In this document: in pieces, positions 21,230 through 23,740 of the stretch | Layout of the letters: every line of letters begins with the position of its first letter | Numbering within the stretch: position 1 is the first letter of the stretch | The notes under the pieces: generated by a model | What the model was told of the DNA's origin: nothing | The model's database searches: none | The model's input: the letters and a program-made list of their open reading frames with translations, nothing else | From: Curvularia clavata | Taxonomy: Eukaryota | DNA: 64,000 nucleotides | Reading direction: 5' to 3' | Assembly (NCBI GenBank): GCA_023920165.1 | Contig: CP089280.1 | Coordinates: 62,001-126,000 of the forward strand | Made by a program: the position numbers and the translations under genes

Positions 21230-23740
21230 ATGTTGCGTTTGCACCCATCAGAACTTACCCTGACGCCCGACGACATCGACGAGACATTTGGTCGCATTGC
21301 CCTCCGGCAGACCTCGCGAGCTCAACAACACTGGACGATGCCGCCCGCCGGACAGCCTAGACAGTCTGGAAAACCTAATCGACCTATTCTGCGGCGTGGT
21401 CCCCAAAGATTGATTCGATATGCCATGACTATCAACAACATTCCCATCCGGCAACCCCAGCAAGCCGTCATCACTTCGGTGGATGAAGACAACAACGAGC
21501 CGCACCGAGAAGCGGCCCAGCCACCAGCTCGTGACAACGGCCACCCGGTTTTGCTTCACTCCAGCCACCAAAGAAACGATGCAACAGCAGGCTTGTCAAC
21601 GGCTTTGCCGTCTCGCTCCATGCAGCTTCCTTTTCGCCTCAGGCCCCCTGTCCAGATGCTAGATGCGCACACTGTTTCCAATGATCAAGCTCAAGGTAGT
21701 ACTTCCCTTACCCCCCAGAATCATCCCCCTAGATTCACAAGGCCAGCATCGACGAGATACGTCGAGAATGGTAACGAACAGCGTGCACAATTGCCTTCAG
21801 TTGGCTCTTCCGCAAACACACCGGAGATGCGAGGCGGAGGCCTGGCCAGTTTTGCTCGCCCCCGCAACCTCACACATGACACTATATATACACCCTCACC
21901 ATTGAACCATATACGAAGGCTGAGTTCTCAAAGCCGAGGAAGCCTTGCCGGTCTTGCTTGCGCCTCTGACATTGTCCAAGATACTATACATGAACCCTCG
22001 CCCTTGGATCAGACACAAAGACTGACTTCATCTACTCAACAATTGTCTCCAGGAGACCCTACTCAGCCACACAGCAGCCCTAGAAATGACTATTCTATGC
22101 CAAACTTGAAGAAATGTCCTGCGGAGACCCCTCACAGCACTGGCTATCCTCACCGTACACATAGTAAATGTCTACCAAGTAGTGAGCCGCGACGCGGTAG
22201 TGGCCGCCACCAGCCTACCATACGCAGTTGTTCGTCAGGAGACGGCGCATCATTCAGTGCCATGGGTCTAAGTACTTCAATTTTGGAAGATCCATCTAAC
22301 GACCTACAAATGCCGTCAGCCATTGTAGAAACCCCCTCTAGACAGGGTCGAGGTTCGTCCAACCCACACAGTGAAGACGGCGATGCATCTAGTGCAAGGC
22401 ATTTCTCAGACACCCCAGAAGGATCGCGCCAATGCGAACAAACCAGCTTGAGGCGTAGAGAGCGTGGTAGTGGTGCTACCAACGCTAGTGCTGCTTATTC
22501 TTGGTACGGATCATTGGGTTCAGATACGCAATTCCCAGGTAGCGAGAATTCGCAAAACGACGAGTCCTGCCCTCAGCTCGATGGAACGAGCGCCAGCGTT
22601 CATCGACTTTCTCCACTTCCATCGTTGCCGTACACACGCATGCAAAATGACTACACGAGTTCACCACCACCATCTACTCGTTCTAGGCAGCTCTCAAGGG
22701 ACCATGTCGCGGCCACAATTGCTGCTCGACATGATTTGCAGTCGCCGCTTGATGCACATGTGAAGCAACCCCAGCAGCGCCTGCAACAGACTCCGCATAC
22801 TCTACTAAACTTTCCCACGCACGCGAGTCCGACAATGTCTTACGTTGGGGGTCTGCCAATAAATCGACCCAACCGAGACCAAGACATGCCCTCTGGTCAC
22901 CCAGTCCACCTCGGACCTGGTCCCGATGACGGTGCATCCCACCAACAGTCTTCGCCCGAGCATCGTGCGTATAGTTTGCGTAACATTTCCAGAACGGTCG
23001 AATACCCCAGACTGGAACAGCGCTCGAGTAAGAACGATCCAGTTTCAGTGTCTATCCACCAGAGCGATGCGGCTCGCCATGGCCGGGTACAAATGCAGAG
23101 AGAAGTTTATGAACGCCTACAGAATGCTGCCTCCCCCATGCAGGCGGGAGCGGCCAGAGGTATCGACATGATATCAAGTCATGACAGTGCGCCACGGACA
23201 CATCGCTCACATGACGAATCCAACCGAGCTCGCAACCACATGGCTCATGATGGCGAGAGATTCAACTCGGGTAGCTCAATGGGTATGCATCAGCCACGGC
23301 AGTTGTCTCGAGGCCAAACTCAAGATGCAGTCCATGCCGGCCCATCGAGACCACTGGCTAGCCAGTTTTCCCGCCAGCTCAGCGCCGAGTCTACAAGACA
23401 CAGAACCCCACGTGTCGATGAGGGAGGGCTTGATGGTCCTCGAGCGCGACCAAGGCATGACGGCCCGCTGAGCACTCTAGCGGCTTTTGAATCAGGCAGC
23501 GACACATGGCGCCGATACTGGCAGTCGCCGCCTGTTCGAGGCGCGCCCACGGCCACGACACGAAGGCATAGGCGTGTCCGAGACGAGCAAGTTGACCAAG
23601 AGAATGCCGGAGAGGAGGAATTGATGCGACGCGAGGAGGCCAGTGTAATTGCACGCTACGGTGAGGAGCAACAGCAGCGAACGACGATGAACGAGACGCC
23701 GCCGAGGATTGGGCGTGTTGAGCGAAGAATGATGGAGTAG
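21230..23740 (+). CDS. Intrinsically disordered protein (836 aa from the first ATG) with a Cdc26-like N-terminal peptide
   Basis: Uninterrupted 2.5-kb ORF with ATG in ACCATG context at 21230. It is S/P/R/Q/H-rich and starts MLRLHPSELTLTPDDIDE. Confidence 0.75.
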   Translation: MLRLHPSELTLTPDDIDETFGRIALRQTSRAQQHWTMPPAGQPRQSGKPNRPILRRGPQRLIRYAMTINNIPIRQPQQAVITSVDEDNNEPHREAAQPPARDNGHPVLLHSSHQRNDATAGLSTALPSRSMQLPFRLRPPVQMLDAHTVSNDQAQGSTSLTPQNHPPRFTRPASTRYVENGNEQRAQLPSVGSSANTPEMRGGGLASFARPRNLTHDTIYTPSPLNHIRRLSSQSRGSLAGLACASDIVQDTIHEPSPLDQTQRLTSSTQQLSPGDPTQPHSSPRNDYSMPNLKKCPAETPHSTGYPHRTHSKCLPSSEPRRGSGRHQPTIRSCSSGDGASFSAMGLSTSILEDPSNDLQMPSAIVETPSRQGRGSSNPHSEDGDASSARHFSDTPEGSRQCEQTSLRRRERGSGATNASAAYSWYGSLGSDTQFPGSENSQNDESCPQLDGTSASVHRLSPLPSLPYTRMQNDYTSSPPPSTRSRQLSRDHVAATIAARHDLQSPLDAHVKQPQQRLQQTPHTLLNFPTHASPTMSYVGGLPINRPNRDQDMPSGHPVHLGPGPDDGASHQQSSPEHRAYSLRNISRTVEYPRLEQRSSKNDPVSVSIHQSDAARHGRVQMQREVYERLQNAASPMQAGAARGIDMISSHDSAPRTHRSHDESNRARNHMAHDGERFNSGSSMGMHQPRQLSRGQTQDAVHAGPSRPLASQFSRQLSAESTRHRTPRVDEGGLDGPRARPRHDGPLSTLAAFESGSDTWRRYWQSPPVRGAPTATTRRHRRVRDEQVDQENAGEEELMRREEASVIARYGEEQQQRTTMNETPPRIGRVERRMME

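Follow-up and report, generated by a model that had tools for sequence, protein, structure and literature searches.

A 64,000-nt stretch of the Curvularia clavata contig CP089280.1 (hereafter, the window) carries a real, conserved single-exon gene encoding a largely disordered protein of 836 aa. We favor, with rather modest confidence, the view that this protein is the Dothideomycete ortholog of the APC/C subunit Cdc26/Hcn1/Apc12 rather than a mimic of it. The similarity of its N-terminus to Cdc26 is consistent but weak. In the prevailing view, Cdc26 is a tiny chaperone-like peptide with a dispensable and unconserved tail.

The gene and its relatives

The gene and the region preceding it have the following positions in the window:

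21230..23740, + strand: complete ORF encoding a Cdc26-like N-terminus and, after it, a long disordered tail (ORF list; 48 and 165 homologs; colinear X1 contig)
20845..21229, + strand: putative 5' leader, only if the end of the X1 contig is the transcript end, with nine ATGs ahead of the start codon and a repeat of the hexamer TGGCAA (X1 contig, sequence)

The ORF is uninterrupted and consists of 836 codons plus a stop; the N-terminus of its product is MLRLHPSELTLTPDDIDETF. Several features place the motif at the true N-terminus of the protein: no in-frame ATG precedes that at 21230 (the stop-to-stop frame begins at 21170, just 20 codons before it), the annotated orthologs begin at the same Met, and all Pfam and PDB alignments start from residue 1. 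The base at position −3 is A. The first-pass annotation had likewise started the protein at the first ATG and pointed to DQEN and TPPR near the C-terminus; the start was confirmed, and the two sequences were found at residues 789–792 and 823–826, respectively.

A homology search yielded 48 proteins at E ≤ 0.001, including the query, and a profile search yielded 165 relatives at the same threshold, 92 of them at E ≤ 1e-30. All named relatives belong to Dothideomycete fungi, with one family member per named species, and range in length from 386 to 1138 aa. Gene models for the family are present in many annotated genomes, and every named record found is labeled hypothetical or uncharacterized. 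An X1 contig (3158 nt) is colinear with positions 20845–24011, has no joint, and differs in depth from its neighbors; the runs X1–X8 are labeled only "RNA?", and their contigs look transcript-like but cannot prove expression, ends, or strand. Two pieces inside the ORF were also found in a metatranscriptome. Intergenic stretches lacking coverage carry no weight in the argument. One could imagine that the ORF arose by chance in GC-rich DNA, since the local G+C content of 54–60% around the ORF lengthens random ORFs, and other long doubtful ORFs nearby, e.g., 24318–25361, belong to no family. However, this explanation is effectively refuted by the conservation across 165 homologs, which have islands near the two termini as well as between them, and the annotated gene models in many genomes, the colinear contig of distinct depth, and the metatranscriptome pieces speak against it as well; its probability is negligible.

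Conservation of the N-terminus and its similarity to Cdc26

The N-terminal region comprises two parts:

21230..21265, + strand: residues 1–12, MLRLHPSELTLT, an extended "rod" proposed to lie in the TPR groove of Cdc16/Apc6 (conservation, PF10471 alignments, PDB matches, AF2)
21266..21328, + strand: residues 13–33, a predicted alpha-helix, the counterpart of CDC26 helix 13–25 (AF2; available text of PMC4344199)

Comparison of orthologs revealed that conservation within the family is highest at the N-terminus (0.85). In 30 diverse members M1, R3, and P6 are invariant, and L2, S7, E8, L11, and T12 occur in at least 90%. Position 4 is occupied by L or C in the family and by R in Cdc26. Acidic residues are present at positions 8, 14, 15, 17, and 18, and such residues speak against a mitochondrial presequence. 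In the AF2 model, residues 1–12 have no secondary structure and residues 13–33 form a predicted helix with a block pLDDT of 83–85. Human CDC26 is described as a rod (1–12) followed by a helix (13–25), with T7 and L9 as the key APC6 contacts (available text of PMC4344199), and is listed as "extended chain/alpha-helix" in Table 1 of PMC3817697. At these contact positions, the family has Ser7 in at least 90% of members and Thr7 in some (P0151, P0162, P0167), and Leu or Ile at position 9. Replacement of Thr by Ser at position 7 is a conservative change. The family-conserved M1, L2, R3, P6, S/T7, L/I9, L11, D15, and V/I16 coincide with the positions that the family shares with the two Cdc26/Hcn1 peptides retrieved from the PDB. 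Per protein, the probability of a chance occurrence of this pattern at the fixed N-terminal positions is 6e-10; the pattern had been selected with the data in view.

The family ANAPC_CDC26 (PF10471), which has a gathering cutoff of 24.5 bits, was the sole Pfam match for the N-terminus, both with the first 60 aa (E 0.086, 14.2 bits) and with the first 40 aa (E 0.014, 16.7 bits); the full-length protein had no match in Pfam. Scoring against this model, proposed by the first-pass annotation, thus gave the anticipated family as the only hit, at 14.2–16.7 bits, under the cutoff. N-termini of orthologs behaved similarly: 21 of 30 diverse sequences matched PF10471 with 13.9–27.6 bits, one of them above the cutoff, and nine did not match. 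In another ortholog set the fraction was 18/24, and PF10471 was the only recurring Pfam family. When full-length relatives were used, 5 of 33 matched and one reached the cutoff; among more distant relatives, matches were obtained for 4 of 25, none at the cutoff. The sole above-cutoff member, P0043, scored 27.6 bits when searched as a fragment of 40 aa and 24.7 bits at full length. A poly-Ala run lies within its aligned stretch and may inflate the score. In every PF10471 alignment, residue 1 was placed on profile position 1.

A profile of the first 40 aa of the family, searched against 177,635 PDB sequences, gave five matches at E ≤ 10, two of which were Cdc26/Hcn1 peptides: human CDC26 (3hym_A; residues 1–18 aligned to 1–18, 13.8 bits, E 0.49) and S. 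pombe Hcn1 (2xpi_B; residues 1–16 aligned to 2–17, 13.3 bits, E 0.72). Two designed proteins ranked ahead of both. No Cdc26 chain was retrieved from the PDB with the whole-family profile (one unrelated match), the single 60-aa sequence (two unrelated matches), or the 95-aa N-terminal profile (four unrelated matches). Among the named clusters of the ESM Atlas, residues 1–45 had no usable match, and the structure rows are meaningless for such a short peptide. A cluster of ~500-aa Ascomycota proteins in the Atlas, matched by the whole protein (score 0.88), with PF10471 in 12% of its members, is considered a lead only. The Cdc26/Hcn1-like character of the N-terminus, as originally claimed, was thus supported, though weakly, by a consistent sub-threshold similarity to PF10471, always in one-to-one register, and by the retrieval of 3hym and 2xpi with the 40-aa profile. 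The anchor motif comprises only some 18 residues.

Both protein database searches for Cdc26-like sequences were based on shared 5-residue words with E ≤ 10 on a database of 5.8 billion, which excludes matches of about 15–25 bits. The search for a short Cdc26-like protein of 52–167 aa returned five matches, all of them fragments or truncated models of the 836-aa family. Among proteins above 70 aa sharing the N-terminus, 44 of the 45 matches belonged to the same family and one was an integrase (E 1.9), with no separate Cdc26. Nor did word-based searches at the same E-value and database size reveal a sequence bridging the family to canonical Cdc26 proteins from other fungal classes. Literature searches concerning Cdc26 in filamentous fungi, in Dothideomycetes, and in connection with disorder and Ascomycota gave no prior description, only a table entry for human CDC26.

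The disordered tail and the C-terminal module

AF2 modeling on the 48-sequence alignment resulted in a mean pLDDT of 45.9, with 651 of 836 residues below 50, in agreement with the long disordered stretch noticed at first reading. Only five helices, all short, were predicted: 13–33, 495–500, 508–519, 619–631, and 785–817. Conserved islands are distributed along the tail:

21365..21475, + strand: second conserved island rP.lRRGPqRs..dAitlg.IP.lrPqqa, residues 46–82, G57 invariant (mean column conservation 0.65–0.77)
21815..21844, + strand: small island with invariant R201-G202-G203, consensus ELRGGG, residues 196–205 (48-sequence alignment)
22175..22243, + strand: basic/Ser-rich island tePRr.s ... 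Rs.Ssg, a candidate phosphorylation region, residues 316–338 (alignments)
22445..22513, + strand: Ser-rich conserved island, S414 invariant, residues 406–428 (alignments)
22604..22639, + strand: island g.SPlPs.Py.r, P464 invariant, residues 459–470 (alignments)
22715..22759, + strand: island with L.SPLd, A495, S505, and L507 invariant, residues 496–510, within the predicted helices 495–519 (alignments, AF2)
23015..23044, + strand: island qrSsEn.Pv, residues 596–605 (alignment)
23570..23737, + strand: conserved C-terminal module dQENsG..lMR.E ... MDETPPR.GRvERrm, residues 781–836 (alignment, AF2)
23594..23605, + strand: DQEN, residues 789–792, with invariant QEN, KEN-like without Lys (alignment, motif scan)
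23696..23707, + strand: TPPR, residues 823–826, full CDK consensus [ST]Px[KR], TPP invariant (alignment, motif scan)

The helix of the C-terminal module (785–817) was predicted by AF2 with a pLDDT of 85–90. In 21 diverse members QEN, TPP, G, and E-R of the module are invariant. The CDK consensus is conserved across the family, with T-P-P invariant and R in at least 90% of the 21 members, and TPPR can be regarded by sequence match as the CDK-type site that had been suspected. The likeness of QEN to a KEN box held in part: Q-E-N is present in 21 of 21 members, but K is absent, and the motif scan detected no KEN tripeptide in the 836-aa protein. The module had no matches in the PDB and no recurring Pfam family among the members; judged from its sequence, it is new and has no known relative. 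For the C-terminal 146 aa, WASH_WAHD was the sole Pfam match (E 0.074) and was treated as noise. Coactivators carry C-box/KILR motifs and IR/MR tails; the likeness of the tail motifs to these was unconvincing by eye.

Lysine makes up 0.7% of the 836-aa protein, and its longest lysine-free run is 245 aa. In 65 members, the median content was 0.56% for K vs. 11% for R, the median K-free run was 480 aa, and no aligned column had K in 30% or more of the sequences. Long, evolutionarily conserved K-free stretches, the defining feature of lysine deserts, are thus present in the family. Such deserts are reported to be enriched in disordered proteins of the ubiquitin system (available text of PMC10169902). 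However, the disordered N-terminus of a neighboring kinase in the same window is also K-poor (1.2%), and lysine depletion is therefore no specific proof.

Interpretation and comparison with known systems

The N-terminal motif could be unrelated to APC/C and represent a convergent or lineage-specific signal or binding peptide on a Dothideomycete-specific disordered scaffold of another pathway. All the Cdc26 similarity lies below or at threshold, three PDB searches gave no Cdc26 chain, the motif spans only about 18 residues, all named records of the family come from a single fungal class, and the tail modules have no APC/C-related match. On the other hand, the similarity is specific in both directions, with PF10471 as the only recurring Pfam family and Cdc26/Hcn1 as two of the five PDB matches; it is always anchored at Met1 and agrees with the known contact positions and the rod-plus-helix arrangement. 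The acidic residues of the N-terminus also argue against one such signal, a mitochondrial presequence. We consider an unrelated motif fairly unlikely.

The first-pass annotation had proposed a Cdc26 paralog or mimic that attaches a large disordered regulatory module to APC/C, e.g., as a stage-specific subunit or inhibitor. On this view, a normal small Cdc26 would be present as well, and at some stage the 836-aa protein would take the Cdc16 groove or contend for it, thereby bringing its disordered regulatory or inhibitory part to APC/C. This proposal shares all the N-terminal evidence with the ortholog reading; the conserved QEN and TPPR motifs of the tail could be regulatory, and small genes are easily overlooked by gene callers and word-based searches. 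Nevertheless, the protein searches gave no sign of a coexisting small Cdc26, and each named species has one family member. Cdc26 is described as a constitutive chaperone-like stabilizer of Cdc16 (available text of PMC6534075 and PMC3817697), which would make its exchange with a competitor less likely, and an unconserved tail of variable length is normal for Cdc26 orthologs, as these are alike only at the very N-terminus (available text of PMC1847674). The proposal did not hold up well and is improbable. Because no short Cdc26 surfaced in the two protein database searches, there is one member per named species, and Cdc26 orthologs resemble each other only at the N-terminus, the lineage's own ortholog is the simpler reading.

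If the 836-aa protein is indeed the Cdc26 of this lineage, its extended residues 1–12 and helix 13–33 would enter the C-terminal TPR superhelix of Cdc16/Apc6 and pack against it, thereby stabilizing Cdc16 in the manner of residues 1 to ~25 of human CDC26 and S. pombe Hcn1, and two copies of the protein would be present on each APC/C. The window itself contains no Cdc16 sequence. The Cdc26 tail, usually short and unconserved, would have grown to about 800 residues in the Dothideomycete lineage, where it may serve as a tethered regulatory or docking arm of APC/C and would probably escape ubiquitination because it is without lysines. The data themselves establish a real gene, a conserved N-terminal motif with weak similarity to Cdc26, predicted disorder, and a lysine-poor tail with conserved modules, whereas we infer Cdc16 binding, orthology in the sense of a sole Cdc26, and whatever function the tail has. 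A bolder version, which we regard as a long shot, is that two lysine-free arms of ~800 residues per APC/C, attached via Cdc26, carry C-terminal modules (helix, QEN, TPPR.GR.ER) that reach the coactivator or catalytic site and act in cis as a CDK-switchable pseudosubstrate or docking element. Such a cis-regulator would mean that the role of inhibitors that are separate elsewhere has been fused to a core structural subunit of APC/C.

Should the ortholog assignment be correct, the largest fungal class has a Cdc26 with a conserved, almost K-free tail architecture (anchor, spaced motifs, QEN/TPPR module). This would indicate a function of the tail on the ubiquitin ligase, make the question of what a Cdc26 tail can do directly testable, and provide a name for a gene recorded only as hypothetical or uncharacterized. 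It would also illustrate how subunits of core complexes, marked by no more than a short anchor motif, can go unrecognized in long disordered proteins left unannotated by domain databases.

Acm1, Mes1, and Emi1 are APC/C pseudosubstrate regulators with KEN/D-box motifs. The 836-aa family resembles them in idea only: a conserved KEN-like motif and a CDK site on a putatively APC/C-associated disordered chain that may engage coactivators, with QEN instead of KEN. Like lysine-desert proteins of the ubiquitin-proteasome system (available text of PMC10169902), it has K-free stretches that are long and conserved, here in a disordered chain whose proposed location is an E3 ligase; the lysine-desert proteins are a compositional class and not a homologous family, and the depletion is partly common to the kinase N-terminus mentioned above.

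Human CDC26 (APC12, 85 aa; 3hym peptide with APC6) has M1, L2, R3, P6, S/T7, L9, L11, D15, I/V16, and E18 in common with the 836-aa protein, as well as extended residues 1–12 followed by a helix (AF2 for the latter, PMC4344199 for CDC26). The 836-aa protein is ten times longer; in its family, position 4 is L/C where CDC26 has R, and most members have S in place of T at position 7. A size of about 80–125 aa with an unconserved tail is typical of Cdc26, though not strictly defining, whereas the tail of the 836-aa protein is conserved in parts; the available text of PMC1847674 describes CDC26 tails as having no detectable conservation, in contrast to the conserved islands and C-terminal module of this family. 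S. pombe Hcn1 (about 80 aa), the fungal Cdc26 that stabilizes Cut9/Cdc16 (available text of PMC4344199 and PMC6534075), aligns through residues 2–17 of its chain in the Cut9–Hcn1 structure 2xpi with positions 1–16 of the family profile. It differs in size and tail content, and its Cdc16 binding has been demonstrated, whereas that of the 836-aa protein is presumed. C. elegans CDC-26 (B0511.9), longer than other Cdc26 orthologs and able to rescue a yeast cdc26 deletion, provides, by its description in the available text of PMC1847674, a precedent for a long Cdc26 recognized only by its very N-terminal pattern.

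The Cdc26-like gene and its surroundings

The open reading frame described in the first-pass annotation was recovered exactly, with the N-terminus MLRLHPSELTLTPDDIDETF. It lies among the following features of the window:

18158–20533 (−): protein kinase, the divergent neighbour; Pkinase domain at residues 342–609
20845–21229: putative 5′ leader of the Cdc26-like gene, 385 nt, only if the contig start in sequencing run X1 is the transcript start
21230–23740 (+): Cdc26-like ORF, 836 codons
26852–28234 (+): cyclin-domain ORF (Cyclin_N, E 2e-12), ~3 kb downstream of the Cdc26-like gene
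40795–42498 (−): long ORF, 568 aa, no Pfam family at E ≤ 1e-5
45991–49440 (+): long ORF, 1150 aa, no Pfam family at E ≤ 1e-5
55867–58242 (−): long ORF, 792 aa, no Pfam family at E ≤ 1e-5

The first in-frame start is the ATG at 21230, with A at position −3; a stop closes the frame 20 codons upstream (stop-to-stop frame from 21170). A word-seeded search returned 48 proteins of 656–1013 aa, including the query, at E ≤ 0.001. The best homolog was from Bipolaris sorokiniana (43% identity), followed by Bipolaris maydis, Exserohilum, Alternaria, Pyrenophora, Plenodomus, and others. An exhaustive profile search yielded 165 proteins at E ≤ 0.001, 130 at E ≤ 1e-10, and 92 at E ≤ 1e-30; distant named relatives were from Trematosphaeria, Westerdykella, Glonium, Patellaria, Saccharata (386 aa), Zopfia, Lojkania, and Parastagonospora. 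The named relatives are Dothideomycetes throughout, and every named record is annotated as hypothetical or uncharacterised. With homologs of this spread, it is hardly conceivable that the ORF is not a gene.

In the public run X1, a single 3158-nt contig was colinear with window 20845–24011 without any joint. Its depth was 29 vs. 160 and 5 in flanking contigs, and the intergenic DNA had stretches without contig coverage. This pattern fits an unspliced mRNA, the RNA label of X1 being a guess and contigs being no proof of transcript ends or strand. The metatranscriptome X9 contained two near-identical pieces (151 and 235 nt) within the ORF. A contig of run X15 omits 285 nt in frame, bounded by GT..AG (21691–21977, residues ~155–249); with a shorter side of only 26 letters and a depth of 5, it could be artefactual or reflect a rarely used splice form. 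The omitted segment includes a stretch absent from most relatives (residues 211–255, gap fraction 0.6–0.98).

The putative leader carries nine upstream ATGs opening uORFs of 28–62 codons, six of which share the main frame and terminate at the stop 21167–21169, as well as a TGGCAA hexamer array (21024–21093, 11.7 copies). Of the 29 differences separating the window from the X1 contig, about 20 are located in this leader. The six listed within the ORF (21578–22862) were all non-synonymous (D117N, S123P, F169S, T262P, L272V, and N545D) with none synonymous, too few for a selection test, and all fall in unconserved tail parts.

Transcript-like contigs of the kinase and the Cdc26-like gene end 116 bp apart (20729–20845), which suggests a short bidirectional promoter common to both. 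Nothing points to a functional link between the cyclin ORF and the Cdc26-like gene. The ORFs of 1150, 792, and 568 aa possibly encode other proteins that are unannotated or disordered.

The N-terminus and its relation to Cdc26

Conservation peaked at the start of the protein, residues 1–15 averaging 0.85 per alignment column. Among 30 diverse members, M1, R3, and P6 were invariant, and L2, S7, E8, L11, T12, D15, and R22 occurred in at least 90%. The whole 836-aa protein had no Pfam match. The sole match of its first 60 aa was PF10471 (ANAPC_CDC26, the Cdc26 family; E 0.086, 14.2 bits, residues 1–31 to profile 1–30), and the first 40 aa reached E 0.014 and 16.7 bits, both under the family cutoff of 24.5 bits. 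Ortholog N-termini matched this family in 18 of 24 cases (95 aa) and in 21 of 30 (40 aa) at 13.9–27.6 bits, residue 1 being aligned to profile position 1 in every case. Nine of the thirty 40-aa N-termini had no match to it, and the only one of the 30 above the cutoff had a poly-Ala run within its aligned stretch. Matches were also found for 5 of 33 full-length relatives (one at 24.7 bits) and 4 of 25 more distant ones (none over the cutoff). No other Pfam family recurred among the orthologs.

No Cdc26 chain appeared among the PDB matches of the whole-family profile, the 95-aa profile, or the single sequence. The 40-aa family profile returned five of 177,635 PDB sequences at E ≤ 10. Among these were two crystallised Cdc26 peptides, that of human CDC26 (3hym; 1–18 to 1–18, 13.8 bits, E 0.49) and that of S. 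pombe Hcn1 (2xpi; 1–16 to 2–17, 13.3 bits, E 0.72). Each alignment is insignificant singly; both being anchored at the start, they are hard to ascribe to chance. The three proteins have in common L2, R3, P6, S/T7, L/I9, L/I11, D/E14, D15, and I/V16. The probability of the shared pattern was 6e-10 per protein on the window amino-acid background, an order-of-magnitude guide only, the pattern having been picked after the data were seen.

We lean towards the gene being the Cdc26 ortholog of this lineage. Excerpts of PMC1847674 describe Cdc26 orthologs as having a conserved pattern only at the very N-terminus and C-terminal regions without detectable conservation, the C. elegans form as exceeding the others in length, and residues 1–71 of the yeast protein as enough for proliferation at a slower rate; the long tail is therefore no argument against orthology. 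Cdc26 is also difficult to detect with standard searches, according to a passage of PMC3224664. As for an extra paralog or mimic, the reading of the first-pass annotation, which we consider quite improbable, the short proteins (52–167 aa) retrieved with the shared N-terminus were only fragments or members of the Cdc26-like family, those retrieved at >70 aa were only this family plus one unrelated integrase, and each named species had one member. An N-terminal motif without relation to the APC/C is unlikely but deserves some weight. On its side are the window protein's scores, which stay below the PF10471 cutoff; on the other, the Cdc26/Hcn1-like character claimed for the N-terminus finds weak but consistent support in that this family alone recurs, start-anchored, at the best conserved part of the protein. 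No APC/C subunit was found among the ORFs of the 64-kb window.

For the ortholog reading, an Atlas match (0.88, a score serving as a lead only) to a cluster of ~500-aa Ascomycota proteins with PF10471 in 12% hints at a wider occurrence of long-tailed Cdc26 proteins. A literature search on Cdc26 in filamentous fungi, Dothideomycetes, or the context of disordered Ascomycota proteins found no description, only a human CDC26 table entry; Sordariomycete papers simply mention an annotated Cdc26.

The disordered tail

The label of a giant disordered protein was fair: the AlphaFold2 model, built from a 48-sequence alignment, had a mean pLDDT of 45.9, with 651 of 836 residues <50, and its regular elements were helices only (13–33, 495–500, 508–519, 619–631, and 785–817). 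Conserved islands were found repeatedly across 65 full-length members (386–1138 aa), chosen from 192 proteins because they start with M[LI]R, have TPP...G at the C-terminus, and exceed 350 aa; both end motifs are thus present in this set by design.

Conserved islands of the tail (residues of the window protein)
51–82: RRGPqRs..dA...IP.lrP
131–137: lPfR
317–338: tePRr.s / Rs.Ssg
411–428: Ser-rich
459–470: SPlPs.Py
500–509: L.SPLd
596–605: qrSsEn.Pv
783–834: C-terminal module, QENsG..lMR.E...R...MDETPPR.GRvERrm

DQEN (789–792) and TPPR (823–826) are present as claimed; TPPR matches the full CDK consensus, and QEN, proposed as KEN-like, is not a KEN box. In 21 diverse members, Q-E-N, T-P-P, one Gly, and an E-R pair of the module were invariant. 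The helix modelled with the highest confidence (785–817, pLDDT 85–90) falls within the module, which had no PDB match and no recurring Pfam family. An invariant R-G-G lies within residues 199–204 (window 21824–21841); we take its family consensus, ELRGGG, to be reminiscent of the LRGG C-terminal tail of ubiquitin, which may be coincidence. An apparent internal duplication was seen by eye at residues ~216–270 (window 21875–22040; DTIYTPSPLNHIRRLSS vs. DTIHEPSPLDQTQRLTSS), a region where the alignment of relatives is largely gapped; the duplication is absent from the Tandem Repeats Finder output for the DNA.

The protein has 6 lysines in 836 residues (0.7%) vs. 11% arginine. Across the 65 members, median lysine content was 0.56% and the median lysine-free run 480 aa, with no aligned column having lysine in at least 30% of members. 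Other Pfam-domain ORFs in the window contained 2.2–8.2% lysine. The depletion is only partly specific to the Cdc26-like protein, since the lysine-poor, disordered N-terminus of the neighbouring kinase (~330 aa) has 1.2%. Lysine deserts are described as prevalent among disordered ubiquitin-proteasome-system proteins in part of PMC10169902.

Comparison with solved Cdc26–Cdc16 complexes

By analogy with the solved complexes, Met1 to about residue 12 would be threaded into the C-terminal TPR superhelix of Cdc16, and helix 13–33 would pack against it. Two copies per APC/C would be expected, since the Cdc16 homodimer carries two Cdc26 (sections of PMC6534075; PMC3817697, Table 1). Composition and conservation suggest that the tail may form a tethered arm resistant to ubiquitination. 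The conserved motifs of this arm, and the QEN/TPPR module in particular, might attract binding partners or feed back on the APC/C, possibly under CDK control. The finding gains interest if the tail proves to be a regulator of the APC/C.

Human CDC26 (85 aa), as given in an extract of PMC4344199, lies inside APC6 as a rod (1–12) followed by a helix (13–25), with key contacts at T7 and L9. The window protein is predicted to be unstructured over 1–12 and helical over 13–33, and the contact positions are conserved in the Cdc26-like family as S/T7 and L/I9.
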